64,000 bases of DNA from Spirochaetales bacterium (GTDB lineage: Bacteria; Spirochaetota; Spirochaetia; JABMQR01). Each line of letters opens with the position of its first letter. The stretch's first letter is position 1. The stretch spans positions 58,032 to 122,031 of the forward strand of contig JAGYPA010000003.1 in the NCBI GenBank assembly GCA_018399255.1, read 5' to 3'. This document shows, piece by piece, positions 1 to 22,501 of this stretch. Both the position numbers and the translations under genes were made by a program. The notes below the pieces were generated by a model that saw only the letters and a program-made list of their open reading frames with translations, searched no databases and was not told where the DNA came from.

Positions 1-147
1 GCCGCGCTGCCGGCTCCGGGTATATCGAGAAAAGCAGTCGGCTCAAGCGTATGCAGAAACGGTTGTGCAGTTGTGGGATCCGTATAACGATTTGGAATAA
101 TGACGAGCCAATTTTGAATGCTTGCATGAAAAAAGGGGAGGATGAGC

Positions 148-1029
148 ATGAAGGAAGGCTTTTATACTGCTCTGGGAACGCCGTTGGATGCTGAAGGCCG
201 CCTGGCTGCAGAGAGCTTTGCTGATCAGATAGAGGATCAGATAGCAGCAGGGGCTTCAGGGCTCCTGGCTATGGGAACTATGGGAACATTAGGCTGCATC
301 CGCAGTGATGTCTACGAAGATGTCATTTCTTGTGCATGCAAAGCAGTTAACGGAAGAGTTCGCTTGATGGTTGGAATTTCCGACAATTCTCTGGCCAGAG
401 TGAGGGTCAAGCTTGATGTGCTGAAGCGGTATCCTGTAGATGTCGGCGTAATCACCGCTCCATATTACTTTCAGTTGTCCGAAACTGTGCTCGAGAGCTT
501 TTTTGCTGAAGCAGCAGCAATGACTGACTTGGATATCTATCTCTATGATCATCTGCCTATAACCAAGCACAAAATAACCTATCCTATGGCAATGCGGCTT
601 TCTCAGATTCCAAATATTAAAGGAATAAAAAGCGGAGACCTGGTACTTATCAAAGCGCTCTTTGAAAATCCGGATTTGAAGAGTGATTTTCTGCCGGTGT
701 TTTCCGGTTCGGATCTTTTTGCGGTCTCCAACCAGTACGGGATCAAAAACTATCTTGATGGCATATTTGCCTGCTTTCCGCGGACAATCAGCCAGGTACA
801 GAAATTTTTCGATGCTGAGGAGTACGGCAAAGCTGGAGAAGCCCTGAATCGCATGATGGCTGGACGTGACGAGATGTTTGCCCTGGGTATCTGGCCCGCA
901 TTTTCCTGTGCAATGAATCTGCTGGGATATGAAGGCAGCTTTGCTCCAGATTATGAACCGGTGATGGATGGTCCGGCATCACAGAAGGTGTTTGAGATAC
1001 TCCAAAAATGCGGAGAGCTGGAAGTATAG
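148..1029 (+). CDS. Dihydrodipicolinate synthase / N-acetylneuraminate lyase family aldolase (class I aldolase)
   Basis: N-terminal GTMGTLG-type motif and overall DapA/NAL-family pattern. GGAGG lies 6 nt upstream of the ATG at 148. The ORF track starts it at 142. Confidence 0.6.
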   Translation: MKEGFYTALGTPLDAEGRLAAESFADQIEDQIAAGASGLLAMGTMGTLGCIRSDVYEDVISCACKAVNGRVRLMVGISDNSLARVRVKLDVLKRYPVDVGVITAPYYFQLSETVLESFFAEAAAMTDLDIYLYDHLPITKHKITYPMAMRLSQIPNIKGIKSGDLVLIKALFENPDLKSDFLPVFSGSDLFAVSNQYGIKNYLDGIFACFPRTISQVQKFFDAEEYGKAGEALNRMMAGRDEMFALGIWPAFSCAMNLLGYEGSFAPDYEPVMDGPASQKVFEILQKCGELEV

Positions 1030-1054
1030 AGATAAAGAAAAAGGAGGACTGAGA

Positions 1055-2506
1055 GTGATTAAAGCCGCTGCCGAAACCTTTTCCATGGTACCTGCTGCGG
1101 ATGCCGCCGGTCAGAAGCTGACATTCGGCCATGTACAGAAAATCTTTACTCCACTGAAAACTACCATTATTCTGCTTCAGGATGATAATCAAAGTATATG
1201 TCTTCTAACGTCTCACTGGCTGGGTGTCCATTACTATCAGTTCAGCAATATTCTCCGGAAGACGCTTTCTGACGCACTGGGAGTGCCGTTCTCGCATGTA
1301 CTTGTCTTTGGTTCCCATAACCACTGTTCGGCGGCCCTGACCAGTCAGAGCAGAGTATTCGGTCAGCCGATGGAAAAGCTTTTTCTCTCGGAAGATCAGC
1401 TGACGACTGACGGTCAGCAGTTTGTCAGTGAGACAAGGCGTACCGCAGAAAAGCTGAGGAGAAATCTGAGGCCAGTAACAGTAAGCTGGGGTGAAGGCCG
1501 GGAACGGAGGATAACTCACAATAACAAAGGATACAGACCCGACGGTAGGACCTACATGATTCGTCATCCTGAAAGAATGCAGCTCGGTGAAAATTTTACA
1601 GGAGACATTGATGATCATGCACCGGTTATCGCGCTTACCGATAATCGGGGATATCCGGCGGCGTTCATTGTACAGTTTACCGGACATCCGACAACAGCCT
1701 ATCATCCTGATTATGCGGTTGTGCATGGAGAATACCCGCAAATTGCCTGCGATGACCTGAGTGCCGCATACGGTAATGTGCCTGTCGCGTTTATTCAGGG
1801 GTGTGCAGCAGACAGCTACTCAGTTGAATCCTTTGCCGGAAAAGCGGTGGGTGAAGCAGTTTCAAGGGCTGAATCAAACGGACATCTTCTCGGGGAAACC
1901 TATACAGCGACGTCTCGAAAGCTGCAGAATTCCCAAAGCAGCACGCTGGCTTTAGCGTGGGACCAAGTCCGTCTGCCGTTTGAGTTGCTTCCTTCTCTTG
2001 AGCAGATGAGAGAACAGTTGGATGAATTAGATCACTTTTCTGCACGCTGCCAGGAGGGGGATGACGGTGCTCTGGAATGTGTCGGACTCAATTTTCCAGC
2101 CAGTTTTTCCTTCGAGCATCGAATAAATCTTGTGGAACCTGTCCGACAATGGGTGAAGTGGATAATCGAACTGCACCAAGCCCATGGACGGCTTGGAATT
2201 CCCGAAGGAGTGACGACTCCGGTCGTTTCGTTCTGCATCGGTGATGTCGGATTCAGTGGTCTTGCATGCGAACCCTTCATGGGCATAGGGCGGCAGATCC
2301 GCAGCGGTTCACCTTTTCCGATTACCGTTCCCTGCGGTTATGTCAATGACACAAGCCTGGTCAACATTCCTGATTCACAGAATAACGGGGACCTGGACTT
2401 TATGAGCTCTACCTACCGATACACTAAAACCATGCTTCCCTATAAGCAGCCGGCCGGTGATCTGCTGGCTGCTTCAGCGGTCAGTATGCTGAAGCGTATG
2501 GTTTGA
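1055..2506 (+). CDS. Hypothetical protein, possible hydrolase, first gene downstream of the aldolase
   Basis: Long ORF. The likely GTG start at 1055 is preceded by AAGGAGG at 1041-1047. The annotated ATG at 968 would overlap the upstream gene by about 60 bp. I recognise no family. Confidence 0.45.
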   Translation: MIKAAAETFSMVPAADAAGQKLTFGHVQKIFTPLKTTIILLQDDNQSICLLTSHWLGVHYYQFSNILRKTLSDALGVPFSHVLVFGSHNHCSAALTSQSRVFGQPMEKLFLSEDQLTTDGQQFVSETRRTAEKLRRNLRPVTVSWGEGRERRITHNNKGYRPDGRTYMIRHPERMQLGENFTGDIDDHAPVIALTDNRGYPAAFIVQFTGHPTTAYHPDYAVVHGEYPQIACDDLSAAYGNVPVAFIQGCAADSYSVESFAGKAVGEAVSRAESNGHLLGETYTATSRKLQNSQSSTLALAWDQVRLPFELLPSLEQMREQLDELDHFSARCQEGDDGALECVGLNFPASFSFEHRINLVEPVRQWVKWIIELHQAHGRLGIPEGVTTPVVSFCIGDVGFSGLACEPFMGIGRQIRSGSPFPITVPCGYVNDTSLVNIPDSQNNGDLDFMSSTYRYTKTMLPYKQPAGDLLAASAVSMLKRMV

Positions 2507-2535
2507 ACATCCAATCCTGAACAGGAGGAATTGTA

Positions 2536-3261
2536 ATGAAAGACAATTTTACAGAATCGAAAGAACCTGCTGCCTGTACGGTTTCTATAGGTGAAGGCAC
2601 GCTTACTGAGCCCGGCGTGCAGATCGGTTTCCGGTATCATCCGGAATGCGGAGGCACGGTCATCGGCAAAAACGGAATTCTGCGGTACGGAACCATTATA
2701 TACGGTGATGTACAGATTGGTGACTACTTTCAGAGCGGCCACTATACGGTAATTCGCGGTATGGTGGAAATTGGCGATTACTGTACGGTAAGCAACCATT
2801 CAACTCTGGAGGGGCTTATGCGACTAGGCAATGGTGTCAGAATCATGTCCCATGTCTATGTTCCTACCCGGACTGTTATAGGAAACCATGTGTTCATCGG
2901 TCCGGGGGTTGTTTTCCTCAACGACAGGTATCCCGCCCGAAGAGAGAAGCCGGAAACACCTGTGGGGGCCGTTATCGAGGATGAGGTGGTGATAGGCGGG
3001 GGAGTTGTCATTCTGCCCGGTGTGACAATCGGAACCGGAAGCTTTATCGCTGCCGGGGCTTTGGTGAATAAGGATATTCCGCCCCGCAGTCTGGTAATGG
3101 GAGTTCCCGGCAATATAATGCCGCTTCCTGCCGATCTGGACAAGCCGAACAATCTGCAGCTGATCGAGCAGCCGCTGGATCTCTGGCATCCGAAGGGGCC
3201 GGATCCCCAAAAAGCTCACTGGCCCGAGCATCTGGGAAGGCGGCCGCTGTCATCAAATTAA
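2536..3261 (+). CDS. Hexapeptide-repeat (left-handed beta-helix) acyl/acetyltransferase
   Basis: Repeated [LIV]-G-x-x-x-x hexapeptides (IGDYCTV, IGNHVFIGPGVVF, VIGGGVVILPGVTIGTGSFIAAGALV). GGAGG lies 8 nt upstream of the start. Confidence 0.7.
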   Translation: MKDNFTESKEPAACTVSIGEGTLTEPGVQIGFRYHPECGGTVIGKNGILRYGTIIYGDVQIGDYFQSGHYTVIRGMVEIGDYCTVSNHSTLEGLMRLGNGVRIMSHVYVPTRTVIGNHVFIGPGVVFLNDRYPARREKPETPVGAVIEDEVVIGGGVVILPGVTIGTGSFIAAGALVNKDIPPRSLVMGVPGNIMPLPADLDKPNNLQLIEQPLDLWHPKGPDPQKAHWPEHLGRRPLSSN

Positions 3262-3357
3262 GCACCGATGGGTTGGGGCTTTCATAATTCAAGGATTTTG
3301 AAAGATCCTCAGATACAGGTGCAGCTGTCACGACGGGTATTTTACAGGAGGGGCCAA

Positions 3358-4902
3358 ATGGCAAAAAAACCTGATATTCTCTGGCTTCTGAGCGATCAGC
3401 ACAATAAAAAGGTAACCGGATATGAGGGGGATGCGTTTGTGCAGACTCCCCATCTCGACGCACTGGCAGAGAGCTCTGTTATCTTTGACACGGCAGTGAC
3501 TCCCAATCCGCTCTGTACTCCGGCCCGTATCTGCATGCTGACGGGAAAAGAAGCCCACCACTGCTCGGCTTATACAAACCACTGGCCGGTATTCCCGGAA
3601 CATCTTACCTGGCCCGGTCATTTTGCTGATAACGGATACCGGACTTGTCTGGTGGGGAAAATGCATCTGGGTGGAAAAAACCAGCTTGCCGGTTTTCAGC
3701 ATCGGCCTTATGGTGACCTCAGGCATGGGGTAGGTCATCAGCCTGATCCACTGGCCAAGTTTCCCGGGTATGCAAATGTCCGCAGTGCGGGAATAACAGA
3801 GCTGCCGGAAACGATGCTCCAGGATTTTGTCGTTGCCCATGAATCGCTGGCTTTTATCAGAGAGCATGCGGACAGGGAACCTGATGTGCCCTGGTTTCTC
3901 TGTGCTTCCTTCACCCGGCCGCATGCACCCCTTACTGCTCCCGGCCGTTATATACGCAAGTACCGCGGAAAGCTTCCGCCGGCAGAGAAGCCGCCGCTCA
4001 GGGAGGATCAGACAAGTTACGAACCCTATGCCCGGAACTTCATTGAGAAGAGTTCTTCCCTGATAAGTCGGGAAGAAGCCCAGGCGGGGTACGAAGCCTA
4101 CTACGCCTGCGTGGATTTTCTTGACGACTGCATCGGGGATCTGCTTGAAGGTCTTAAGAAAGACGGACTTCTGGATAATACCTATATAATATATACCGCT
4201 GATCATGGGGAAATGCTTGGCCGTCATGGTATCTGGGGTAAGAAACTCTACTACGAACCATCAATGAGCGTACCCCTGCTGATATCCGGGCCCGGTATAA
4301 CCGGAGGCAAACGAGCAGCCGGTCCGGTATCAACCATCGATCTCTATCCGACTTTCTGTACACTTGCCGGACTGCCGATACCTGCGGGGCTGGACGGGGT
4401 TGATGTGAGTTCTATGCTTACAGATCCGGAAAACGCCCGTCCGCGCGATTTTGCTGCCTCGAGTTATTTCCAGTATGGAATATGGTGGGACACCGAGGAT
4501 GCGGTTAACGAACAGCTGCCGCATAAGGCGATGCGTGTGATTCGGGAAGAACGGTGGAAATATGCCGAAGTTGAACAGGGGGAAGCCCTTCTCTTTGATA
4601 TGGCAGATGATCCCGAAGAGCGCATCAATCTGGTGCAGGATCCAGCTCATCAAGATCGGGTTCAGCGGATGCGGGAAAAGCTCTATACCAATTTCAGCTG
4701 GGCTGGGGTTCATCGAAAGCTGGCAGAAGATAGGGAGCGCAGGCTGCAGGTGACCTCGGGAATGAAGCCGACTACGCCGAATCAGTACCTGCTGGCTGAC
4801 GGCAGGCTTGTTGATGCCGAGAGGGATCTCTACGATGCCCGTTGGATTGTCATACCGGAAGAACCCGAGTCGGGAGGTCATATTCCTCAGTATTTCGGTT
4901 GA
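3358..4902 (+). CDS. Sulfatase (formylglycine-dependent arylsulfatase family)
   Basis: C-T-P-A-R motif (C-x-P-x-R sulfatase signature) near the N-terminus at LCTPARICMLTG, and a downstream GKMHLGG motif. The start moves to the in-frame ATG at 3358 (MAKKPDILWLLSDQHN). Confidence 0.8.
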   Translation: MAKKPDILWLLSDQHNKKVTGYEGDAFVQTPHLDALAESSVIFDTAVTPNPLCTPARICMLTGKEAHHCSAYTNHWPVFPEHLTWPGHFADNGYRTCLVGKMHLGGKNQLAGFQHRPYGDLRHGVGHQPDPLAKFPGYANVRSAGITELPETMLQDFVVAHESLAFIREHADREPDVPWFLCASFTRPHAPLTAPGRYIRKYRGKLPPAEKPPLREDQTSYEPYARNFIEKSSSLISREEAQAGYEAYYACVDFLDDCIGDLLEGLKKDGLLDNTYIIYTADHGEMLGRHGIWGKKLYYEPSMSVPLLISGPGITGGKRAAGPVSTIDLYPTFCTLAGLPIPAGLDGVDVSSMLTDPENARPRDFAASSYFQYGIWWDTEDAVNEQLPHKAMRVIREERWKYAEVEQGEALLFDMADDPEERINLVQDPAHQDRVQRMREKLYTNFSWAGVHRKLAEDRERRLQVTSGMKPTTPNQYLLADGRLVDAERDLYDARWIVIPEEPESGGHIPQYFG

Positions 4903-5010
4903 TGAGGTTCTTCTGAAGGCGGCAGGAAGCAGTTAATCAATCGATAAACCTGATGCTGCGGCTATTGTAAAATGGGAAAAATCGTATATACTATAGTCAG
5001 TATATATCAA

Positions 5011-5041
5011 TATAACCGTTTGGTTATAGCGGTCTTTTTTT
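5011..5041 (+). terminator. Weak candidate intrinsic terminator after the sulfatase operon
   Basis: AT-rich 7-bp stem (tataacc/ggttata) followed by a T7 run. Confidence 0.3.
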
Positions 5042-5176
5042 ACACCTTTTCGTTTTATACCATTCTGTGAGCAACTGTTATGTACATAACGGAGTCATGA
5101 CTGCTGAACGTACCATGCTTCAATAGTGAAAGGTACTGTACAAAATGCGCAAACAATCAAGGAGATTATTTTTTTG

Positions 5177-5205
5177 TTGACAAACGGGAAAATGAAAAGT
5201 ACAAT
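5177..5205 (+). promoter_or_regulatory. Sigma70-like promoter (TTGACA-17-TACAAT) for the ABC transporter operon
   Basis: TTGACA at 5177-5182 and TACAAT at 5200-5205 with 17-nt spacing, about 170 nt upstream of the substrate-binding protein start. Confidence 0.45.
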
Positions 5206-5374
5206 TTTAATTGTTATAATATTAGTACAATAAATAATTGATCGGTTATACAGATAGTGATTGGTTATACAGGGATTAAAGTTAAAATGAGGAAGATTTT
5301 CTTTCTCTGAAAAAGTTTCGGTATATTGCTTGCTGTCGGAAGACAGCAGTAAGAAAAAACTATGGAGGTTTGTA

Positions 5375-6727
5375 ATGAAACGTAGTGCAAAGATTCTTAT
5401 GGCTGCAGCAGTTTTCTTTCTCGCGGCTGGTATGCTATTTGCCGCCGGGCAGCAGGAAGCAGAAGCAGGTGGAGATGTAACCATCTCTTTTTGGCACTTT
5501 CCCCAAGTAATTGGTGTGAAGGGGTTTGAGGATCAGTCAAAAGAGTATGGCCAGTTCTGGGCGTATCTTGCAGAAGAGTTCAGCGCCATGGACAACGGTA
5601 TTAAAGTTGAAACCGAGCTGATCCCCTGGACCGGCGGTTTTGAACGGTTCAATGTTGCTATTGCCGGTGGTAATCCACCCACAATCGGAGCTGATTATCT
5701 GGGCAGAACTCCCATTTACTATGCCTCAGGGATGGCAACTCCGGCAAACGAAGTAGTTCCTTCCCTGGTGGACGATACCGATGCCTCAATTGTGGATATT
5801 TATACACTCAGTGACGGCAATGTACACGCGCTTCCGGCCTTCAGCTGGAGTCAGGGACAGATGGTTGTGAATGTCGGCCTGCTCAAGAAGTACGGCTGGA
5901 CAGGTCCGGTTCTCAATGGCCCCGGGCAGCCGTTTTCCTTTGATGAAATGACGGCATTCCTGGAAAAAGCCAAAAAAATTGTCCCCAGCAATATATTTCC
6001 CACCGTATGGAGCTGCGGAGATGAGCAGGGCGACTATCTGTGGATGAATATTTTCACTGCCTATGGATACAAACCGTTTGATGCCGACGGCAATGTAGCC
6101 AGCGATGTCAGCGGTATGATAAAAGGTTACAACCTGATTAAAGAGCTTCATGAGAAAGGTCTTACAAACAGGGGTGTTGCCAGCATGAAGGGCAATGAAG
6201 GCAACGATGTATTTTCCAGCGGGCTCAGTGTTCTGAACCGGTCAGTCTCCAAATCTATGATAACAGAAATTGAAACCCGTATAAACGAGGGAACGCTGGA
6301 CTTCGAGTTTGACCTCATGGTCGTTCCTTATCCTACTCCCGATGGCGATTACGGGTATTCAGCTTTAGGGCCGACCGCCTTTATCTACCTGACAAAGGAT
6401 CAGAAAGAGCTTGATGCTGCTGCTGCATGGACAGAGTTTGTTATGCAGGAAAAGTACTGGCCGAACCTTGTTGCCGGAACCGGACAGCTGCTGCTCCAGA
6501 AAAGGTATGCTGATTTGGATCTTTACACCGGCGATCCGCTCATGGAAGTTACCGGGCTGATTAAAGCCAATACAAGTGCTATGGATTTTGGTCTGACCGA
6601 CCCGAACTACCAGAAACGCCGTGAAGCAATGGCTGAAGCTGGACAGAAGATTTTTACCGGAATGGCATCTGTAGAAGATGCAGTGAAGGCTCTTCATGAC
6701 CAGTTTAAAGCGCTTAACAAGGAATAG
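5375..6727 (+). CDS. ABC transporter substrate-binding protein (carbohydrate-type, family 1 SBP)
   Basis: Signal peptide MKRSAKILMAAAVFFLAAGMLFAAG. GGAGG lies upstream of the ATG at 5375. It is followed by two MalF/MalG-type permeases. Confidence 0.75.
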   Translation: MKRSAKILMAAAVFFLAAGMLFAAGQQEAEAGGDVTISFWHFPQVIGVKGFEDQSKEYGQFWAYLAEEFSAMDNGIKVETELIPWTGGFERFNVAIAGGNPPTIGADYLGRTPIYYASGMATPANEVVPSLVDDTDASIVDIYTLSDGNVHALPAFSWSQGQMVVNVGLLKKYGWTGPVLNGPGQPFSFDEMTAFLEKAKKIVPSNIFPTVWSCGDEQGDYLWMNIFTAYGYKPFDADGNVASDVSGMIKGYNLIKELHEKGLTNRGVASMKGNEGNDVFSSGLSVLNRSVSKSMITEIETRINEGTLDFEFDLMVVPYPTPDGDYGYSALGPTAFIYLTKDQKELDAAAAWTEFVMQEKYWPNLVAGTGQLLLQKRYADLDLYTGDPLMEVTGLIKANTSAMDFGLTDPNYQKRREAMAEAGQKIFTGMASVEDAVKALHDQFKALNKE

Positions 6728-6842
6728 CAGAGTAACGGAATAAGAACGAAAACTTTCTAGTGTTTGAGTTATTGAGGGCCCCTTGAAATAGATGTACTGT
6801 TGAAAGGGGCCGTTTTTAAAACTTTTTCTTCAGGAGGGGAAA

Positions 6843-7736
6843 TTGGCTAAACAGGCAAAAAGTTTATGGTACAGGATAAAAAGCGAGAGATCCGCCTATT
6901 TCTTTATCCTGCCCTCTATAATAATGTTTCTTCTACTTGTGCTGGTTCCCTTGATTTTGACGTTTATCTACAGTTTTCAGGATCGTGCTCTTGTACTCAA
7001 AGGGTGGGTTGGATTTCAAAACTACATTAATCTCTTCAAGGATCCCTATTTTCATCGAGCTTTGAAGAACACGTTTACCTTTGTGATAATACTGGTCCCC
7101 GTAGTGGTAATAGTTACGTTTCTGGTAGCTCTTCAGGTCTCGCCGCTCAGGCAGCAGTACCGGGTCTTTTTCCGGGCGGCTTTCTATCTGCCGGTGGTAA
7201 CCAGCGGGGTGGTAAACAGTATGGTGTGGCTCTGGCTTCTGAATACTGACTACGGTCTGCTTAACTTTATTGTCACATCCCTGGGGATGGAGCCGGTCAT
7301 GTGGCTGGCCTCGAGCAATACGCTCTATTATCTGATATTTGTGGTATTCACATTCAATTTCGGCACGCCGTTTATAATTTATGTTGCCGCAATGGGCAAT
7401 ATTCCTACGGTTCTTCTGGAGGTTGCCCGGATTGACGGGGCAAAAAAGCGGACCATAACCTGGAAGATTGTTTTTCCTCTGCTGAAGCCGGTGACATTTT
7501 TTCTTTTTGTTACCCAGACAATTTTTGTGTTCATGGTCTTTGTCGTAATCCAGCTTCTGACCGACGGAGGACCGGCTCGCACAACAGAAACCATTATTTA
7601 TATGCTCTATAAGACAGCATTTCGTTTTCTGGAATTTGGCCGAGCCTCAGCCATGGGTGTAATTCTGCTTTTTATAATACTGAGTATTTCAATCCTGCAG
7701 AAAGTTCTTGTGGGAAAAGATGACACCACCTATTGA
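6843..7736 (+). CDS. Carbohydrate ABC transporter permease (MalF/UgpA-like)
   Basis: Multi-TM protein with the EAA-type loop region (VARIDGAKKRTITWKIVFPLLKP). Confidence 0.8.
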   Translation: MAKQAKSLWYRIKSERSAYFFILPSIIMFLLLVLVPLILTFIYSFQDRALVLKGWVGFQNYINLFKDPYFHRALKNTFTFVIILVPVVVIVTFLVALQVSPLRQQYRVFFRAAFYLPVVTSGVVNSMVWLWLLNTDYGLLNFIVTSLGMEPVMWLASSNTLYYLIFVVFTFNFGTPFIIYVAAMGNIPTVLLEVARIDGAKKRTITWKIVFPLLKPVTFFLFVTQTIFVFMVFVVIQLLTDGGPARTTETIIYMLYKTAFRFLEFGRASAMGVILLFIILSISILQKVLVGKDDTTY

Positions 7737-7748
7737 TGGAGTGAGACG

Positions 7749-8618
7749 ATGAAACGATTTATGATAGAGTCCCGCGAGTTTGCCTATGGAAATCGTCAGG
7801 AACAGGTAAAGTATTATTTCATTATTTTCTTGACGTTTCTACTCTCCTTTATCTTTATTTTTCCCTTCTACTGGTTGTTTAAGGGGGCCTTTCAGCCGCC
7901 CTATATGGCGACGCAGATGCCGCCCGCCTTTGCACCGGTAAATCTGACGTTTAACAACTTTTTTCGGCTTTTTTCCCGATTCCCCGCTTTTCGCTGGTTT
8001 ATCAACAGCGTAATTGTTTCCGGCTGCGCTACGGCTTTTACGCTTGTATTCGGATCTCTGGCCGGCTATGCTTTTGCAAAGCGGAAATTTCCGGGGAAAG
8101 AGGTTCTTTTCTGGATGCTGCTGGCTACCATGATGCTTCCAAGACAAGTGACGCTGATTCCGCTCTACATAATCATGAACAACTATGGATTATACAACAC
8201 CTATCCGGGGATGTTTCTTCCTCAGATAGCCTGGCCGTTCGGCCTGTTTCTCATGCGGCAGTTCATGACCTCAATTCCCGATGAGCTGATTCAGTCCGCA
8301 AAAGTTGACGGAGCTAACGAGCTGACGATTTTTCTGCGGATAATTGTTCCCCTCAGTATACCGGCTTTTGGAACCGTCGGGATTCTCTATTTTGTTCGCG
8401 TCTGGAACGATTATCTCTGGCAGCTGGTAATAAGTAAGGATCTCGTTATGAATACCCTGCCGGTAGGGGTAGCTAAAATTTCACAAGGGGAGTTTGCGGT
8501 GGATTACGGCCTGCTGATGTCCGGAGCGGCTGTCAGTGCGATTCCCATGATTGTTATATTTCTCTTTTTCCAGAAGTATTTTGTGACAGGGCTTACCGTA
8601 GGCAGCGTCAAAGGCTAG
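7749..8618 (+). CDS. Carbohydrate ABC transporter permease (MalG/UgpE-like)
   Basis: Multi-TM protein with the EAA motif region (SAKVDGANELTIFLRIIVPLSIPA). Confidence 0.8.
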   Translation: MKRFMIESREFAYGNRQEQVKYYFIIFLTFLLSFIFIFPFYWLFKGAFQPPYMATQMPPAFAPVNLTFNNFFRLFSRFPAFRWFINSVIVSGCATAFTLVFGSLAGYAFAKRKFPGKEVLFWMLLATMMLPRQVTLIPLYIIMNNYGLYNTYPGMFLPQIAWPFGLFLMRQFMTSIPDELIQSAKVDGANELTIFLRIIVPLSIPAFGTVGILYFVRVWNDYLWQLVISKDLVMNTLPVGVAKISQGEFAVDYGLLMSGAAVSAIPMIVIFLFFQKYFVTGLTVGSVKG

Positions 8619-8664
8619 TTGCTGCGTAAATAAATCAAGGTGAAATAAATCAAGGTGAAAATAT

Positions 8665-9981
8665 ATGGATACCAGTAAAGGACAGAATCTCTATCAACGA
8701 GCTAAAGAACTGATTCCCGGCGGAACGCAGCTGCTGAGCAAGCGGCCGGAAATGTTTGCCCCCGGCCAGTGGCCTCCCTATTATGCATCTGCTTCGGGGT
8801 GCCGGGTAGTCGACTTGGACGGTAACCGGTTTACCGATATGTCATCGATGGGAATCGGTTCCTGTCTGCTGGGTTATGCCGACCCGGTGGTGAACAAGGC
8901 GGTTATTCAGGCCGTTCAGGATGGGACAATGAGCACGCTCAATAGTCCTCAGGAGGTGGAGCTGGCCGAACTGCTGGTGGAGCTTCATCCGTGGGCTGAT
9001 ATGGTGCGGTATGCCCGCAGCGGCGGTGAAATCATGGCCATTGCTGTAAGAATTGCCAGGGCAGCATCGGGACGGGATCGGATTGCTTTTTGCGGATATC
9101 ATGGCTGGAGTGACTGGTATCTGGCTGCAAACTTATCCGAAGGCGACAGCCTGGACGGACAGCTGCTGCCGGGGCTGGCCCCTGTTGGAGTGCCTAAAGC
9201 ACTGGGCGGTACCATTTTTCCTTTTCACTACAATGTGATCGAGGAGCTGGAAGAGATTATAGCTCAATACGGCAACTCAGTCGGGGTTATTGTCATGGAG
9301 CCTTTCCGGTATCAGGGGCCGCAGGATGATTTTCTGCTTAAGGTCAAGGAGATAGCCCGGAAAAATGGATCAGTGCTGATTTTTGATGAGATTACTTCCG
9401 GGTGGAGGCATCATCTGGGCGGGGTCCATATGAAGCTCGGAATTGAGCCGGACATGGCGGTTTTTGCGAAAGCAGTAAGTAACGGGGTTCCTATGGCAGC
9501 CGTGATCGGAAAAAGGGCTGTTATGGACAGTGCCCAGAACAGCTTTATCAGCAGCACCTACTGGACTGAACGGATCGGCCCAGCTGCCGCTCTGGCCGCT
9601 ATTAAAGAGTATCGGAGAAGGGATGTGCCGAAGATAGTGGGCGAGACCGGTTCCGCTGTCCATCGTATCTGGAAATCCGCCGCTGAGAAAGCCGGTCTTG
9701 CACTGGCTGTAGAGGGACCTCCCGCTTTGAGCCATTTCAGTTTTGCCTGTAATAATGCGGCCGCACTGGGAACGCTTCTTACGCAGGAGCTGCTGAAGCA
9801 GGGGATTCTCGGCAATTCCGCCTTCTATGCAAGTGCCGGCCATGATGAAAAGGCTTTGCAGGACTATGAACTGGCAGTCAATACCGTGTTTCCAAAACTG
9901 AAGCGGGCCCTCGATGAAGATCGGGTTGAGGCTTCTCTCGAAGGACCGGTTGCTCACAAAGGATTTACTCGACTGACCTGA
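8665..9981 (+). CDS. Class III aminotransferase (glutamate-1-semialdehyde aminomutase-like, PLP-dependent)
   Basis: GSAM-like N-terminus (SKGQNLYQRAKELIPGGTQLLSKRP) and the fold-type I pattern (DEITSGWR). Confidence 0.7.
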   Translation: MDTSKGQNLYQRAKELIPGGTQLLSKRPEMFAPGQWPPYYASASGCRVVDLDGNRFTDMSSMGIGSCLLGYADPVVNKAVIQAVQDGTMSTLNSPQEVELAELLVELHPWADMVRYARSGGEIMAIAVRIARAASGRDRIAFCGYHGWSDWYLAANLSEGDSLDGQLLPGLAPVGVPKALGGTIFPFHYNVIEELEEIIAQYGNSVGVIVMEPFRYQGPQDDFLLKVKEIARKNGSVLIFDEITSGWRHHLGGVHMKLGIEPDMAVFAKAVSNGVPMAAVIGKRAVMDSAQNSFISSTYWTERIGPAAALAAIKEYRRRDVPKIVGETGSAVHRIWKSAAEKAGLALAVEGPPALSHFSFACNNAAALGTLLTQELLKQGILGNSAFYASAGHDEKALQDYELAVNTVFPKLKRALDEDRVEASLEGPVAHKGFTRLT

Positions 9982-10081
9982 TCGGGCAGCACTCTGCATT
10001 GTTTCAGCTGCCAGCTTCGATGCCGCCAACTTGCCGCTGCCGCCAGCTTTTTAACTGTAGCCAGCTTCCGCCAGCTTCCTG

Positions 10082-10921
10082 CTACCAGCTTCTTGGGTAG
10101 ATGGGGAACGTCTGGGGCGGCAGTTCGGTATCCCGTACGTAGCGGATCAGGTTGACATACTCTTGTACGATGGCAGAAAACACCGCTTCGCCTGTTGCTT
10201 TCGATGCTGGAGAAGGATCGCCGTAGACGCCGGTCTCGCTTATCTGAAGTCCCCAGGTGGACCAGCTTATTTTTCCTGATCCGTTTATAAAATCACCTGC
10301 TACCCATTCATTGCAGTGGACAACCGTATCCCGTCCATCCATGCCTGAGAGATCAACCGGATACCCGAAATGAAGCATAAGCGAAGTTTCATACTCACCG
10401 GCATGACTTGCTCCGCCAATTGCGCTTTTTCGGATGCTTTTAAATGCTGATGCACCGAGAGCATGCGGCATGGATACCACGACAGCAGTTCCTGTGCGGT
10501 CAAAGACTTCCCGGGCGGCAATTTTTGCGACATCTCCATGGGGCCCGTGGGTCGAGACGATAATGATTCTGGAAAATCCCATCTCGACAGCAGACGTGCA
10601 GATATCGGCAATGTAACCGGCAGTGATTTCCCAACGGACCCGGAAGGAGGGCCAGTTTTGGAGACTCTTCGGGTTATATCCGTAAGGAACAGGGGGCAGC
10701 ACCAGTACCTGAGGGTCATTGTTACATTCCCTGGCTGCCGCCGCTGCTGCTCGTTCCGCGATGAAGGTATCGCAGCCAACGGGAAGGTGCGGGCCGTGCT
10801 GCTCGGTCTGACCAAAAGGCAACAGCAGAATTGCTCCTGAGGCGGCAGCCCGGGCAATTTCATTGCGATTGCAGTTTGCATAGTAGATGCTGTCTGCAGT
10901 ACTATCAGTATTCGTTGGCAT
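10082..10921 (-). CDS. Creatininase-family amidohydrolase
   Basis: LLLPFGQTEQHGPHLPVGCD and IIIVSTHGPHGD creatininase-family motifs. The start is at MPTNTD with GGAGG upstream. Confidence 0.7.
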   Translation of the reverse strand: MPTNTDSTADSIYYANCNRNEIARAAASGAILLLPFGQTEQHGPHLPVGCDTFIAERAAAAAARECNNDPQVLVLPPVPYGYNPKSLQNWPSFRVRWEITAGYIADICTSAVEMGFSRIIIVSTHGPHGDVAKIAAREVFDRTGTAVVVSMPHALGASAFKSIRKSAIGGASHAGEYETSLMLHFGYPVDLSGMDGRDTVVHCNEWVAGDFINGSGKISWSTWGLQISETGVYGDPSPASKATGEAVFSAIVQEYVNLIRYVRDTELPPQTFPIYPRSW

Positions 10922-10983
10922 AGAGAGACCTCCTGAATAAAATTCCTGAATAAAGTGCAAATTTTGCTTTACACTCTCCCTGC

Positions 10984-11007
10984 ATATGATATAATGTTAT
11001 ATCATAT
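10984..11007. promoter_or_regulatory. Perfect 11-bp inverted repeat (ATATGATATAA-tg-TTATATCATAT) in the divergent promoter region
   Basis: Exact palindrome between the creatininase gene (-) and the NagB-like copy 1 (+). Confidence 0.4.
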
Positions 11008-11071
11008 TATAAGATAAAAATACAGCCTTTTTTCGGCTGGAGCCTGAAATTCATGGAGGGAGATACATACT

Positions 11072-12030
11072 ATGAATGGTTTTGACTTTTCACCGGCGCC
11101 CTGGATTCCTTTTCGCGACAAGGCGGTTCTGGATCGGGTACGAAAGCTTTCGGGGGAAGCGCTGACGCAGCATCCTAACAAGAACTTCCGGATTCAGATC
11201 AGCAAAAATCCCGGGCTTTTTTCTTTGCCCATCTTTTCAGCAAGATCCAGGAATCCGACCGGGAGAACAAGCCGTTTGTCGCCATCCTCGGCAATCCCGC
11301 CCCGGGAACCTACGAGCCCCTGGCAGACCTGATAAACTACGCGGGAGTAAACTGCCGCAACTTCTACCCTTTACCATGGACGAATGGGCCGATGAGAACG
11401 GAAACATAGCTCCGACAACCTACAAGGCGGGTTTTCCTACTCGTTTCTAAAATACCTGATTAACCGGATCCGGCCGGAGCTCCGGCCGCCGGAGAAGAAC
11501 GTCTTCTATCCCACAAACGAGAACATACAGGACTACTCGAAGCTGATAGCGAGAAGGGGAACGGCGGGGCCGATACCCTCTATTCCGGTCCTGGGTGGGC
11601 CGGTCATATTGCTTTATCGATCCGTGCCCGAGCTGATTCCCGATTACCGGGAAGGCGGGGAGTACCTGATCAAGGATCTGGACGATCCCTACTTTCAGCA
11701 GCTCGGCGCAGGTGCTGACGATCCATCCGCTGACAATTGTGCAGAATTCGCTGCACGGTGTTTTCGGACAGAGCGGGATCTTGCGCAGGTGCCGCCGAAA
11801 GCGGCGACCATCGGCCCGCTGGATGTGCTCAATGCGAAGGAACGGATCGAGACTCACTGGATAACGACAGGAGGCCAGTTCAGCATGGCGCCGGATGACC
11901 AGCCGGCTGATAACCCACGGGCCGGTAACTCCCTACATGCCGGGATCGATTCTGCAGCTGCTCGATACCACTGTGCTTATCAGTGAAAGCATTGCAGAAC
12001 CGATAGAGTGCATGGAGACCGTCGGCTACT
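11072..12030 (+). pseudogene. NagB-like (glucosamine-6-P deaminase / sugar-phosphate isomerase family) pseudogene, copy 1
   Basis: The N-terminus MNGFDFSPAPWIPFRDKAVLDRVRKL is a homolog of the intact paralog at 20436-21371. The reading frame breaks several times, with fragments in three frames (11072-11332, 11609-11986, and others). Confidence 0.7.
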
Positions 12031-12074
12031 GAGAAGTATGTATTGAACAGTATTAAACGAGGAGAGATGCTCTA

Positions 12075-13037
12075 TGAATGGTTTTGACTTTTCACCGGCG
12101 CCCTGGATTCCTTTTCGCGATAAGGCAGTTCTGGATCGGGTGCGGAAGCTTTCGGGGAAGCACTGACGCAGCACCCCAACAAGAACTTCCGGATTCAGAT
12201 CAGCAAAAACCCCGGCCTCTTTAAATTTGCCCACCTTTTCAGCAAGATCCAGGAATCCGACCGGGAGAACAAGCCGTTTGTCGCCATCCTCGGCAATCCC
12301 GCCCCGGGAACCTACGAGCCCCTGGCAGACCTGATTAACTACGCGGGAGTCAACTGCCGGAACTTCTATCCTTTTACCATGGACGAATGGGCCGATGAGA
12401 ACGGAACATAGCTCCGACAACCTACAAGGCGGGTTTTTCCTACTCTTTTCTCAAATACCTGATTAACCGGATCCGGCCTGAGCTCCGGCCTCCGGAGAAG
12501 AACGTCTTCTACCCCACAAACGAGAATATACAAGACTACTCGAAGCTGATTGCGGAAAAGGGAAACGGCGGGGCCGATACCCTCTATTCCGGTCCTGGGT
12601 GGGCTGGTCATATCGCCTTTATTGATCCGTGTCCCGAGCTGATTCCCGATTACCGGGAAGGCGGGGAGTACCTGATCAAGGATCTGGACGATCCCTTCTT
12701 TCAGCAGCCGGCGCAGGTGCTGACGATCCATCCGCTGACGATTGTGCAGAATTCGCTGCACGGAGTTTTCGGACAGAGCGGGGATCTGGCGCAGGTGCCG
12801 AAAGCGGCGACTATCGGCCCGCTGGATGTGCTCAATGCGAAGGAACGGATCGAGACTCACGGGATAACGACAGGAGGCCAGTTCAGCAGCTGGCAGCGGA
12901 TGACCAGCCGGCTGATAACCCACGGGCCGGTAACTCCCTACATGCCGGGATCGATTCTGCAGCTGCTCGATACCACTGTGCTTATCAGCGAAAGCATTGC
13001 AGAACCGATAGAGTGCATGGAGACCGTCGGCTACTGA
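12075..13037 (+). pseudogene. NagB-like pseudogene, copy 2 (tandem duplicate of copy 1)
   Basis: Near-identical N-terminus. A frameshift follows the SGE codons (ggggaagcactgacg versus gggggaagcgctgacg in copy 1). The C-terminal segment 12717-13037 is in frame with the paralog (TLAQNSLHGVFGQSGDLAQVP). Confidence 0.7.
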
Positions 13038-13090
13038 CCGTCGGCTGCTGAAAACTATATTTTTTGAATAGAAAGAAATGAGAAGAGGGT

Positions 13091-14161
13091 ATGACTATGA
13101 ACAGCAGAGAGCGCGTTCTTGCCGCCGCCGAACGAAGAAAGACTGACAAGGTTCCCACATCTTTGCGCTGTACGCCGGAAGTGCTGCAGGCTCTGATTTC
13201 CCGGCTGGGAGTAACTACCAAGCAGGAAGTCTACGATGCACTGGACATCGATCTGCGATGGATTTATCTCCCCTTTATCGGACCTGAAGAGCGCTCTGCA
13301 GCAGTTATGGGCAGCGAGGGGGTCGACTTCTGGGGCTGCCGCAATACGAAAATGGGAAATAAGTTCAATACCTACTACGAGATTACCGGGCATCCGCTTG
13401 CTGAAGCGGAAACCGTTGAGGATGTGGAGAACTACGATTGGCCGAGCCTGGATTGGTGGGATTATGACGCAATACCGAAAATTATCGAGGCCGAGCTGCA
13501 GAAGGACAGGCGGGCAATCATGTTCTTTGCCGGTGGAGCCTTTGAAACCCCCTGGTATATTCGCGGTTTTGAGCAGTTTCTTATGGATCTGTATCTTAAT
13601 CCGGACATTGTTACTGCCATCTGCAGCAAAGTTGAAGAGTACTATCGGCTTCGGGCCCTTCGGGTTCTGGAGGCAGCCGACGGAATGATAGATATTGTGG
13701 GTTCTGGCGGGGACCTCGGCGGGGAGACGGCTCTGCTGCTTGATCCGAACAAATGGCGGGAACTGATCAAGCCCTACACAGCCAGTCTGATCCAGACCTT
13801 CAAGCAGATGGGACTGAAGACCTTTTACCATTCCGATGGCGCCATAACCTCAGTAATCGAGGATTTTATTGAAATCGGCCTCGACATTCTCGATCCGATT
13901 CAAGTGGGGGCGGCTGGTATGACTCCGGAAGAACTGTCACCGAAATTTGGAAGCAGGCTGACGTTTCACGGGGCAATTGATGAAGTGCACCTGCTGCCGC
14001 ATGCCGCCCCGGAAGAAGTGTATCGGGAAACCCGGCGAGTTATATCCATTCTTGGACAGAACCATGGATATATTGTCTCTCCAACCCATCAGCTGCAGGG
14101 AGATACATCAGTTGATAATGTACTGGCAATTTATCAGGCGGTAAACGACTTTCGCTGGTAG
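13091..14161 (+). CDS. Uroporphyrinogen decarboxylase (URO-D) family protein, MtaA/MtbA/CmuA-like methyltransferase family
   Basis: URO-D-family N-terminus (RERVLAAAERRKTDKVP) and 356 aa length. Confidence 0.6.
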   Translation: MTMNSRERVLAAAERRKTDKVPTSLRCTPEVLQALISRLGVTTKQEVYDALDIDLRWIYLPFIGPEERSAAVMGSEGVDFWGCRNTKMGNKFNTYYEITGHPLAEAETVEDVENYDWPSLDWWDYDAIPKIIEAELQKDRRAIMFFAGGAFETPWYIRGFEQFLMDLYLNPDIVTAICSKVEEYYRLRALRVLEAADGMIDIVGSGGDLGGETALLLDPNKWRELIKPYTASLIQTFKQMGLKTFYHSDGAITSVIEDFIEIGLDILDPIQVGAAGMTPEELSPKFGSRLTFHGAIDEVHLLPHAAPEEVYRETRRVISILGQNHGYIVSPTHQLQGDTSVDNVLAIYQAVNDFRW

Positions 14162-15351
14162 ACGGTTTTTCCATCAATAATAGTCATATGTACATTGATA
14201 TCTTCATCAAAAACTGCAAGATCAGCGTCCAGGCCAGCCCGGATTGACCCCTTGTGATGTTCCAAAGCAAGGAATTTTGCAGGATTATACGTTGCTGCAG
14301 TTACGGCTGCCGGGAGTGATATCCCGGTATGCCGCATGAAATTACGGATCGCATCATTCATGGACATGAGGGAACCGGCCAGGCTTCCATTTTCAAGCCG
14401 GACCACATCCTCTCCTTCTCTCAGGACAATTTTCAGACCGTCTTTCATGGTATACCTTCCAGGAGGGCTCCCTGCGGCATCACGGGAATCTGAAATAAGG
14501 ATTATTTTTTCAGCGCCTTTACAGCGAAGGAGAATGGTAAGCAGGACCGGCGGTACGTGGATACCGTTTTTGTCGGCAATAACTTCTGCGTACAGCTCAT
14601 CACAAACCAGAAGCTCTTCTTCTATTCCCCAGGCCTTAACTCCCCCCTCGTATGGAACCGGATCGGCAAAACAGTCAAATATATGATCAATATGGGATAT
14701 ACCCAGATTGAGGGCCCGCTCCAACCGCGGAGGAGATGCGCGGCAGTACCCGAGAGCAACGTGAACATCATGTTTCCGCAGCGTGCGAACCATATTTTCA
14801 TATCCTGAAATCTCTGATGATACGGTCATGATTTTTAGATTGCCTTCAGCGGCAGAAAGTATCCGGCCGACATTTTCAGCGGTGGGTATAATTGCATGCT
14901 CCTCACTCTGGGCACCACGGTCGGGATTTATGAACGGCCCCTCCGAATTGATGCCGACAACCTGCGCCCCATGATCCGCTTTCTGTTCCCGCATCCAGCG
15001 ACTGATGAGACGGCAGCCGTTAATGAGAGATTCCAGGTCCATATTCCAGAAGGTGGGAAGAAAGGCTGTAGTTCCATGTCTGGCGAGGTAGCCAGCCATC
15101 TGATCGTACGGTCCGAAGGCTGCATCGATGCCGTTTGCACCGTGGGTGTGAATGTCAATGAATCCGGGAGAGATGTACATTCGCTGCACATCGATCACGT
15201 TATAAAAATCTGAAGTTTCAGGATGCTGCAGATAGTCTTCTTGAGCTGCAATTTTTTCTATCTTACCCTCCCTGATATACAGTACCTTGTCATGAAGTAC
15301 GGTATGAGGAGTCAAAATTAATCCATTGATAAGAATGATGTTTTTATTCAT
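14134..15351 (-). CDS. NagA-like amidohydrolase (N-acetylglucosamine-6-phosphate deacetylase family)
   Basis: GFIDIHTHGANG metal-binding motif and amidohydrolase fold. The start moves to MNKNIILINGLIL. Confidence 0.7.
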   Translation of the reverse strand: MNKNIILINGLILTPHTVLHDKVLYIREGKIEKIAAQEDYLQHPETSDFYNVIDVQRMYISPGFIDIHTHGANGIDAAFGPYDQMAGYLARHGTTAFLPTFWNMDLESLINGCRLISRWMREQKADHGAQVVGINSEGPFINPDRGAQSEEHAIIPTAENVGRILSAAEGNLKIMTVSSEISGYENMVRTLRKHDVHVALGYCRASPPRLERALNLGISHIDHIFDCFADPVPYEGGVKAWGIEEELLVCDELYAEVIADKNGIHVPPVLLTILLRCKGAEKIILISDSRDAAGSPPGRYTMKDGLKIVLREGEDVVRLENGSLAGSLMSMNDAIRNFMRHTGISLPAAVTAATYNPAKFLALEHHKGSIRAGLDADLAVFDEDINVHMTIIDGKTVYQRKSFTA

Positions 15352-15430
15352 ATGCTTTTTAAAAATGTATACATAAATAATATAACAAAGTATACTATAA
15401 AACAATTCTTATGTAAACTAAAGATGAGAA

Positions 15431-16786: not shown

Positions 16787-16814
16787 TTTGTTGTTTACAG
16801 AAAGCCGATAAAGC

Positions 16815-16843
16815 GTATACAATATAAATATAAAATTGTATAC
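16815..16843. promoter_or_regulatory. 9-bp inverted repeat GTATACAAT-N11-ATTGTATAC upstream of the MttB-like gene
   Basis: Exact inverted repeat 30 bp upstream of the GGAGG ribosome-binding site. Confidence 0.4.
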
Positions 16844-16873
16844 GAATGGTGATGGCCATGTGAGGAGGAATGG

Positions 16874-18283: not shown

Positions 18284-18383
18284 TGAGGCAGATCTTGCTT
18301 GACAATGGGAAAGAGGTAACGTAAAATTAAATGGTTATAATATTCTTATATTATAATTTTTCTTTATAATAGAAGGAGTTGAC

Positions 18384-19370: not shown

Positions 19371-19430
19371 TAAGCAAACAGCTTTCAGAAAGCTTGAAAA
19401 GGGCATGCCGATGCTGATGCATGAAAAAGG

Positions 19431-20390: not shown

Positions 20391-20435
20391 CCAGTGATTT
20401 AAAAGTTTCGGGATAAGATAAAAGGAGACGGCAGA

Positions 20436-21371: not shown

Positions 21372-21372
21372 C

Positions 21373-22479: not shown

Positions 22480-22501
22480 ACCGAACGGGGAAGATTCAGC
22501 T

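Follow-up and report, generated by a model that had tools for sequence, protein, structure and literature searches.

The 64,000-nt stretch of DNA analysed here (positions 58,032 to 122,031 of contig JAGYPA010000003.1 from a Spirochaetales bacterium, assembly GCA_018399255.1), called the window at its full length, carries near its left end four genes that encode an aldolase-type protein (g1), a ceramidase-like protein (g2), a hexapeptide transferase (g3) and a sulfatase (g4). The g2 product is predicted to be a stand-alone domain with the fold of neutral ceramidases, and its gene is paired with a g3-like gene in many glycan-related loci. All coordinates are window positions unless a locus is named; L-numbers designate comparison loci (L088 being GCA_964546945.1) and P-numbers designate g2-related proteins. 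The features are as follows.

2..100, plus strand: 3' end of an upstream gene, whose translation, PRCRLRVYREKQSAQAYAETVVQLWDPYNDLE followed by the stop, matches the C-terminus of the product of L088 4913-5398 (a 161-aa protein with no assigned function)
148..1029, plus strand: g1, class-I (Schiff-base) aldolase-type gene of an orphan subfamily of the DHDPS/NAL family (Pfam DHDPS)
1055..2506, plus strand: g2, predicted stand-alone metallohydrolase domain of neutral-ceramidase fold, 483 aa, with a remodelled active site
2536..3261, plus strand: g3, predicted left-handed beta-helix (hexapeptide) N-acetyltransferase of acetyl-CoA type (Pfam Hexapep)
3358..4902, plus strand: g4, predicted cytoplasmic Cys-type formylglycine sulfatase of family S1 (Pfam Sulfatase and SGSH_C)

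An earlier note on this DNA, made from the letters alone, had described four co-directional and closely spaced genes at 148-4902. All four open reading frames (ORFs) are present, and the g1-g2, g2-g3 and g3-g4 intergenic gaps are 25, 29 and 96 nt. The g1 ORF opens at 142, and its start is placed at the ATG at 148 because the Shine-Dalgarno sequence AGGGGAGG, which ends at 141, is too near the ATG at 142. The g2 gene starts with a GTG located 6 nt past AAGGAGGA, which gives a product of 483 aa, and g3 is preceded by AGGAGG. The g4 ORF opens at 3268, and the ATG at 3358 has an AGGAGG upstream; from this ATG, the product begins MAKKPDILWLLSDQHN and matches choline-O-sulfatase from residue 4 onward. 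A start at 3268 (544 aa) was considered and rejected, as L089 has ATA in place of the upstream ATG and the extension peptide is not conserved in L006. These comparisons make it almost certain that g4 really starts at the ATG at 3358. Between g3 and g4, the 96 nt at 3262-3357 are about 90% conserved in L088 and L089 and contain a short inverted repeat, CTTTCA…TGAAAG.

Within g1-g4, internal promoter and terminator sites are limited to weak consensus matches, the promoters occurring at about chance level, and no Rfam RNA family was found in bases 1-13300. The gene order is kept in other genomes (g2-g3-g4 followed by the gene of a solute-binding protein in L006; g1-g3-g4 followed by the same gene in L088), and the spacing and this synteny suggest that g1-g4 may be co-transcribed as a single unit. 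The operon proposed by the earlier note stands as a conserved co-directional segment, not as a complete unit: the end of an upstream gene lies at 2-100 and a separate promoter lies downstream of g4. The upstream co-directional gene ends about 45 nt before g1, and window 1-1031 aligns with L088 5299-6367 at 90% nucleotide identity. As bases 2-100 encode the end of this co-directional gene, g1-g4 would be the tail of a longer operon that starts outside the window. Besides the 161-aa protein, the upstream part of L088 encodes a 148-aa uncharacterised protein, a FucI/AraA-like isomerase (weak Pfam matches), an Amidohydro_2 protein and a GntR/UTRA regulator, beyond which lies a divergently transcribed gene of the MR_MLE dehydratase family.

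The protein of 484 aa for which the earlier note recognised no family has in fact 483 aa, and a family can now be proposed for it. It has no match in Pfam, NCBIfam or the PDB sequences, and a homologue search retrieved 98 relatives that are all unnamed or "hypothetical" and of which none carries a Pfam domain. An AlphaFold2 (AF2) model of 1055-2506 built with 41 homologues (pLDDT 93.4, pTM 0.93), the structure prediction that the earlier note had called for, was compared with the PDB by Foldseek, and the only real matches were neutral ceramidases (2zws, 1e-22; 4wgk, 1e-20). The match covers the ceramidase catalytic domain; the C-terminal Ig-like domain is absent and g2 has no signal peptide. 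The g2 family profile compared with 2zws gives E = 0.04. It retrieves 8486 cluster representatives at E <= 1e-3 and 3422 at E <= 1e-10, and ten matches sampled from the 115-140-bit tier (about 1e-30 to 1e-36) all match PF04734 (Ceramidase_alk), seven of them above the cut-off. The homology of g2 to PF04734 thus appears transitive, through intermediate proteins. Taken as a whole, the modelled fold and the profile matches make g2 part of a highly diverged, unannotated branch within the neutral/alkaline-ceramidase superfamily. Scanning the genomes of GTDB species representatives yielded at least 334 relatives. The vast majority belong to Planctomycetota or Verrucomicrobiota, and a few to Lentisphaerae, Acidobacteria and Woeseiaceae; several genomes harbour multiple copies. 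A metagenome scan with the single g2 protein detected distant relatives only (20-28% identical), and a literature search found no characterised ceramidase-like deacylase in glycan loci.

The active site of this copy differs from that of most of its family. Residue equivalences were counted in profile-to-PDB alignments and in a joint alignment with PF04734-positive relatives. The chain of PaCD, the P. aeruginosa reference, aligned only over the H204 and E411-Y460 regions, and the equivalences with human Y579 and Y591 were assigned via PaCD. The ligand assignments of PaCD are those reportedly made for its structure (2ZWS). The columns, named after the residue found in the g2 family, are the following.

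g2 column H88: human ASAH2 H194; PaCD not aligned; Zn ligand
g2 column H90: human H196; PaCD not aligned; catalytic
g2 column R157: human R257; PaCD not aligned (presumably R160); catalytic
g2 column H211: human H303; PaCD H204; Zn ligand
g2 column E406: human GEF motif; PaCD E411; Zn ligand
g2 column Y437: human Y579 (via PaCD); PaCD Y448; Zn ligand
g2 column Y449: human Y591 (via PaCD); PaCD Y460; catalytic

The roles of H196, R257, Y579 and Y591 are those described for human ASAH2 (PMC6952831). Of the 41 aligned family members, 37 have the complete set of seven residues, and the PF04734-positive relatives likewise have R, Y and Y at columns 157, 437 and 449. The four exceptions in the family alignment are the g2 of the window and its three closest relatives there, P0002, P0003 and P0005, which have N (or C) at 157, N at 437 and F at 449 and have lost K257. 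The g2 of the window keeps H88, H211, E406 and H90, which are aligned and invariant in the family, and of 113 columns with a conservation of 85% or more outside the window subclade, this subclade retains 96. The same substitutions are common to relatives that are only 51-67% identical, so the remodelling appears to be old; the alignments point to a focused, ancient change of the active site of the subclade and not to decay. It is plausible that g2 of the window is a metal-dependent hydrolase, though not one with the canonical ceramidase mechanism. Since three canonical catalytic residues are replaced, this protein cannot simply be called an amidase, and its chemistry is predicted to be altered or weakened.

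The distribution of g2 among close strains bears on the same question. Window 1-1031 and 2550-6742 align with L088 at 90-92% identity, while window 1032-2549, which comprises g2 and the first codons of g3, is missing from it. The g1 stop of L088 overlaps a new g3 start, and g2 has been cleanly lost from an operon that is otherwise intact. The outgroup L006 carries g2, g3 and the genes of the sulfatase, solute-binding protein and permease in the same order, with identities to the window of 67, 74, 70, 66 and 75%, respectively. Because L006 has this order at even identities, the g2-g3-sulfatase-binding protein-permease block is taken to be ancestral, with a loss of g2 in L088. A horizontal insertion of g2 into the operon of the window was also considered and rejected, since L006 holds the same block at even divergence.

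These data raise the possibility that g2 of the window is a catalytically dead or decaying relic, at most a binding or scaffold protein, and that the working operon, like that of the sister strain, comprises only the DHDPS-like enzyme, the acetyltransferase and the sulfatase. Four columns that are 100% conserved in the 37 other members are replaced (R157N, K257V, Y437N and Y449F), three of them corresponding to catalytic or Zn residues of ceramidases, and a locus of about 90% nucleotide identity (L088) has a clean deletion that joins g1 and g3 end to start. Against such decay, the substitutions are shared with relatives only 51-67% identical, so that they are old, and the protein keeps 96 of the 113 other conserved columns, a full ORF, a strong Shine-Dalgarno sequence, the His/His/Glu set and His90. 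Furthermore, P0003, P0004 and P0005 persist as stand-alone genes, which argues for a selected function and for a chemistry that is new rather than lost. A relic is therefore regarded as possible but doubtful.

The association between g2 and g3 extends far beyond this lineage. Neighbourhoods were counted in 86 loci that hold 100 g2 homologues. A hexapeptide transferase gene adjoins 60 of these homologues, being immediately downstream of 55 and immediately upstream of five, and many of the gaps are of -4 or -11 nt, which suggests that the overlapping genes are translationally coupled. Paired genes are found in Planctomycetota, Verrucomicrobiota, Lentisphaerae, Acidobacteria and Woeseiaceae; none of the ten most distant g2 paralogues has a hexapeptide partner. 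The two genes also diverge together, g2 and g3 being 41% and 48% identical to those of the Verrucomicrobiales locus L003 and 67% and 74% identical to those of L006. This arrangement and co-divergence show g2 and g3 to be an old gene pair whose members are inherited together and often appear to be translationally coupled. In L103 (13423-15980), a second ceramidase-like gene (506 aa, weak PF04734 match) is located beside a gene of the Antibiotic_NAT family (aminoglycoside 3-N-acetyltransferases). As this partner is a non-homologous replacement, it supports a functional unit made of a hydrolase and an N-acetyltransferase. Genes encoding hydantoinase A/B, Amdase and Asp/Glu racemase lie near this pair.

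Independent lineages (L005/L006, L101/L102, L103 and the window) have a class-III aminotransferase gene adjacent to g2 or in its vicinity. In L101 (415-14906), the g2 homologue lies with genes of class-III and DegT-family aminotransferases, KduI, a cupin-type glucose-6-phosphate isomerase (GPI), an aldehyde:ferredoxin oxidoreductase and a split transketolase; this operon lacks a hexapeptide partner and looks like an anaerobic amino-sugar pathway.

In genomes of the Planctomycetota-Verrucomicrobiota (PVC) group, the genomic context of the g2-g3 pair is one of glycan utilisation. The neighbours of g2 in the 86 loci are as follows.

Secreted protein of about 535 aa without Pfam domain: 36 loci
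BNR_2 sialidase-like protein: 23 loci
GFO/IDH/MocA oxidoreductase: 22 loci
GntR-FCD regulator: 16 loci
SSF symporter: 14 loci
SDR (short-chain dehydrogenase/reductase): 14 loci
DHDPS-family gene: 11 loci
Sulfatase: 11 loci

The secreted family of about 535 aa is the commonest neighbour of g2-g3 in PVC genomes (L003 8374-9981 and 35 other loci). Its profile weakly matches the five-bladed beta-propellers of GH117, GH130 and GH32 (best E 4e-5), and it may, on this profile comparison, be an undescribed glycoside hydrolase family. The sulfatase was considered as a general partner of g2 and rejected, since the PVC sulfatases encoded close to g2 are secreted proteins sharing only 23-27% identity with g4. 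The association of a cytoplasmic sulfatase with g2-g3 thus appears specific to the spirochaete lineage.

These neighbours could be taken as signs of a catabolism of sialic or other nonulosonic acids, in which g1 would act as an N-acylneuraminate-type lyase, the N-acyl group would be edited by g2 and g3 (for example by taking glycolyl or another acyl group off, the unstable free amine being re-acetylated) and g4 would perform the O-desulfation of a sulfated sialic acid. The PVC loci of g2-g3 hold BNR_2 (23 of 86), SSF (14), DHDPS (11), GntR-FCD (16) and GFO/IDH/MocA (22) genes, the order g2, g3, DHDPS, SSF occurs in L003 and L040, and the top NCBIfam match of g3 is NeuD/PglB/VioB. However, these co-occurring families are all broad, BLASTP links g1 to no DHDPS neighbour of PVC loci, and g1 scores only 36 bits against the NanA cut-off of 281. 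The window contains no sialidase, NanK, NanE or SSF gene, the spirochaete context is that of a pathway of the aldose-isomerase, lactonase and dehydratase type, and g2 of the window has lost the basic residues R157 and K257, which are potential carboxylate binders. Such a catabolism is thus considered unlikely here. The earlier note had related g1 to DapA and sialate lyase; the class-I aldolase family that it named is retained, whereas the sialate-lyase flavour is weak at that NanA score.

The g1 product matches Pfam DHDPS (PF00701) at 9e-23 and is below every NCBIfam equivalog cut-off (dapA 76.5 against 206 bits; NanA 36 against 281 and 25 against 382; KdgD 46 against 278), and its best PDB matches are DapA proteins (about 1e-16). 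Its Schiff-base Lys161 (GIK, codon 628-630) aligns with K161 of DapA and the Tyr of its LYD motif with Y133; Ile occupies the position of DapA Arg138, the residue that binds aspartate-semialdehyde. From these alignments, g1 is predicted to encode a Lys/Tyr class-I aldolase-type enzyme of the DHDPS/NAL family.

The g3 product, which the earlier note had rightly seen as a hexapeptide acyltransferase, matches Pfam Hexapep (PF00132) at 4e-25 over three stretches. It is below all NCBIfam cut-offs, the best match being NeuD/PglB/VioB (1e-18), and its best PDB matches are QdtC 3fs8 (7e-27), 7s3u, FdtD/WxcM 4mzu, WlbB 3mqg and DapH 3r8y. These matches assign g3 to the QdtC/WlbB/DapH group of hexapeptide N-acetyltransferases, with an amine as predicted acceptor.

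The resemblance of g1 to DapA and of g3 to DapH (TIGR03532, 2e-16; 3r8y, 1e-15) brings to mind a variant set for lysine biosynthesis through acyl-diaminopimelate. Four enzyme classes map one-to-one onto this pathway, with g1 as DapA-like (its best matches being DapA), g3 as DapD/DapH-like, the class-III aminotransferase as DapC/ArgD-like and g2 as DapE-like. Yet g1 reaches only 76 of the 206 bits required for dapA and lacks Arg138, there is no DapB, g2 is strain-variable, and the genes are embedded with those of a sulfatase and a sugar ABC transporter and, in relatives, of a sugar isomerase and a dehydratase. A lysine pathway is thus highly improbable.

The g4 product matches Pfam Sulfatase (PF00884) at 7e-48 and SGSH_C. 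Its CTPAR motif (3514-3528, residues 53-57 of the 514-aa form) aligns with CAPAR of BetC; the Cys falls on the formylglycine Cys54 of choline-O-sulfatase, so that the Cys type announced by the earlier note holds at the expected position. None of the g1-g4 products has a signal peptide, and they are predicted to be cytoplasmic for this reason; in g2, g3 and g4, the conserved domain begins with the first residue. As that note had also found, the window encodes no maturase: no domain of the radical-SAM/anaerobic sulfatase-maturating enzyme (anSME) type or of the formylglycine-generating enzyme (FGE) type occurs in any ORF of at least 180 aa, and g4 would have to be matured by an anSME encoded elsewhere.

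The nearest characterised relatives of g4 are choline-O-sulfatases (6fny, 7pth and 6g5z, about 5e-52), which belong to SulfAtlas S1_12, and TIGR03417 is its top NCBIfam match. Along with the IMG name "choline-sulfatase" borne by cluster members that are close relatives of g4, and with an MttB-family methyltransferase and two URO-D/MtaA-like genes encoded 8-18 kb downstream, this could indicate the utilisation of choline-O-sulfate, or of a related quaternary-amine sulfate ester, by a g4 product of BetC type. In choline-O-sulfatase, choline is bound by Trp129 and His145, with Tyr123, Trp142 and Trp143, and there is an Asn146-Asp500 gate (PMC9063841). At the corresponding positions, g4 has R for Y123, H for W129, a deletion of W142/W143, P for H145 and G for N146, so the choline-clamp residues are not conserved, and the gating C-terminal tail does not align. 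In addition, g4 obtains 273.4 bits on TIGR03417, for a cut-off of 433.45, betA, betB and betI are lacking, the operon partners handle sugars and amines, and divergent genes separate the methyltransferase genes from the operon. Choline-O-sulfate is therefore a very unlikely substrate, and the IMG name given to relatives of g4 is, in view of these residues, probably an over-call.

Downstream of g4 lie the following features.

5015..5042, plus strand: weak terminator-like hairpin with a T-run, 3' of g4; its stem holds one copy of the TGGTTATA motif
5177..5205, plus strand: near-consensus sigma-70-type promoter, TTGACA-17-TACAAT, which would serve the downstream transporter unit
5239..5272, plus strand: two tandem 15-nt repeats, TGATYGGTTATACAG, just 3' of the promoter; candidate operator
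5375..9981, plus strand: downstream unit encoding a binding protein of the SBP_bac_1 family (5375-6727), two permeases (6843-7736 and 7749-8618) and a class-III aminotransferase (8665-9981)

The spacer between g4 and the gene of the solute-binding protein is of 473 nt. Its promoter has 11 of 12 consensus matches and is the best site within bases 1-5500. The repeats at 5239-5253 and 5258-5272 are 93% identical with a 19-nt spacing, and a third related copy lies at 5012-5028, in the hairpin; three copies of a TGGTTATA(C/G)-type motif thus flank the promoter of the transporter unit, the repeats being also written TGGTTATAC. They are a candidate operator, possibly for a regulator such as the GntR/UTRA protein encoded at the head of the operon in L088. 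The transporter/aminotransferase unit has its own predicted promoter and is probably co-regulated with the sulfatase operon, and the order sulfatase, solute-binding protein, permeases is common to L006, L088 and L089. This ABC uptake unit (5375-9981) encodes a binding protein and two permeases without an ATPase, and the signal peptide of the binding protein has no lipobox cysteine (…LFAAGQQEAE). The class-III aminotransferase is nearest to glutamate-1-semialdehyde (GSA) aminomutases and relatives that include aminoglycoside C-6' aminotransferases.

Further downstream, the window carries two direct tandem copies (11070-12032 and 12072-13037, 94% identity) of a unit of about 965 bp, located between a creatininase-family gene and the first URO-D-like gene; they hold only short broken ORFs on both strands and match no Pfam or Rfam family. 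The cluster at 13091-23662 comprises an MttB-superfamily methyltransferase gene (16874-18283), two URO-D/MtaA-like genes (13091-14161 and 21373-22479) and a paralogous pair of Amidohydro_1 genes whose products are 32% identical (14134-15405, minus strand, and 22370-23662), as well as genes encoding an Amidohydro_2 protein, an MFS transporter, an aldo-keto reductase and a 311-aa protein without Pfam match. It looks like an island for the anaerobic demethylation of methylamine or a quaternary amine. Two sizeable ORFs have no Pfam match, 46944-48278 (444 aa) and the one encoding the 311-aa protein (20436-21371). HtpG, encoded at 28695-30569, shares 83% identity with a "Spirochaetales bacterium" protein and about 71% with its counterparts in Marispirochaeta and Sediminispirochaeta, which points to an uncultured spirochaete as the source of the window.

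The following model can be drawn for the operon. It would be the distal part of a cytoplasmic, inducible catabolic operon whose substrate is an imported small sulfated compound of amino-sugar type, a reading that we hold to be about evenly poised. The most sensible class of substrate is still an N-acylated amino sugar or sugar acid that bears sulfate, in keeping with what the earlier note had suggested. The substrate would be imported by the adjacent ABC transporter, after which g4 would remove the sulfate ester and g2 and g3 would process the amino or N-acyl group. Finally, g1 would perform a Schiff-base C-C cleavage or dehydration of a 2-keto-3-deoxy-type or cyclic-imine acid. An amidase and an N-acetyltransferase that act on one amine would form a futile cycle, so the pair should either bracket another step or swap an acyl for an acetyl group. 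In the first case, the amine would be acetylated, transformed and then deacetylated; in the second, a non-acetyl acyl group would be replaced by acetyl. Neither of these two schemes goes beyond a tentative possibility, well short of an even prospect; the nearby class-III aminotransferases favour bracketing for the lineages closest to the window. The carbohydrate context in L088 consists of the FucI/AraA-like isomerase, Amidohydro_2, MR_MLE and GntR/UTRA genes.

Several points weigh against this model. Its enzymatic steps are predictions from family membership, and co-transcription is a prediction from spacing and synteny. The g2 product of the window has N157, N437 and F449 in place of R, Y and Y and has V at the family-invariant K257, and g2 may contribute little here, given the intact operon of L088 that lacks it. 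No hexapeptide partner accompanies the subclade relatives P0003, P0004 and P0005, which are stand-alone genes. Class-III aminotransferases occur near g2 in only seven of 104 loci, most PVC loci having none, and the one of the window is 32% identical to the g2-adjacent one of L005, to which, at such an identity, it is probably not orthologous. The pyruvate-binding GxxGE motif of g1 reads GTMGT (274-288). Lastly, QdtC, WlbB and FdtD are biosynthetic enzymes that act on NDP-sugars (DapH excepted) and not on free sugars.

The operon is ordinary in kind, being a catabolic cluster; what is new is the identity of g2, its conserved pairing with an N-acetyltransferase in glycan loci, its remodelled active site and its presence or absence according to the strain. 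More generally, g2-g3 might be an unrecognised and widespread module for the editing or protection of N-acyl groups, made of a ceramidase-fold Zn amidase and a beta-helix N-acetyltransferase and used by Planctomycetota and Verrucomicrobiota to catabolise unusual amino sugars or nonulosonic acids, the spirochaete subclade having evolved a different chemistry on the His/His/Glu site, tied to a sulfated substrate; this wider proposal is speculative and put forward tentatively. If true, it would give the neutral-ceramidase fold its first function that does not concern lipids. The family, with at least 334 members among GTDB species representatives and thousands of more distant relatives, has no Pfam or NCBIfam annotation and is "hypothetical" everywhere. 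Its superfamily placement and its pairing in loci of polysaccharide-utilisation type lead to the hypothesis that its members are N-deacylases for amino sugars or sugar acids, which concerns an uncharacterised step of glycan turnover in Planctomycetota, Verrucomicrobiota and related marine and soil bacteria. A natural experiment is provided by the subclade, with its remodelled active site, and by a sister strain from which g2 is deleted.

Compared with the neutral/alkaline ceramidases (PF04734; PaCD 2ZWS/2ZXC, human ASAH2 4WGK), g2 has aligned H-x-H, His and Glu motifs, and in its wider family the Arg and both Tyr residues (the Zn ligand and the second one) are retained as well. However, the identity is about 13% and there is no direct PF04734 match. 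Whereas these enzymes have 630-780 aa and participate in lipid metabolism, g2 is a predicted cytoplasmic protein of 483 aa without the C-terminal Ig-like domain, encoded in carbohydrate loci beside an N-acetyltransferase. The g1 product shares PF00701, the Schiff-base Lys and the catalytic Tyr with the enzymes of the DHDPS/NAL family (DapA, NanA, KDG aldolase, KdgD and L-KDF aldolase) but is under all equivalog cut-offs, with GTMGT for GxxGE and without Arg138 of DapA. With QdtC, WlbB, FdtD and DapH, which N-acetylate an amine using acetyl-CoA, g3 has in common the hexapeptide-repeat fold, but it belongs to a catabolic operon and is coupled to a hydrolase. Like BetC/COSe (S1_12; 6FNY, 6G5Z and 7PTH), with which it aligns over 430 residues and shares C-x-P-x-R, the DHG motif and the catalytic Lys, g4 is a predicted cytoplasmic Cys-type formylglycine sulfatase; it differs from them by a score below the TIGR03417 cut-off and by the lack of the aromatic choline cage, the gatekeeper tail and a bet operon. 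The DapD-DapC-DapE, ArgA-ArgD-ArgE and catabolic AstA-AstC-AstE pathways combine an N-acyltransferase, a class-III aminotransferase and a Zn deacylase. By analogy, the same enzyme logic may apply here, the three genes being contiguous in L005. Unlike in AstA/AstE and ArgA/ArgE, to which the deacylase and the acyltransferase of the present system are not homologous, the protected compound would probably be a sugar derivative.

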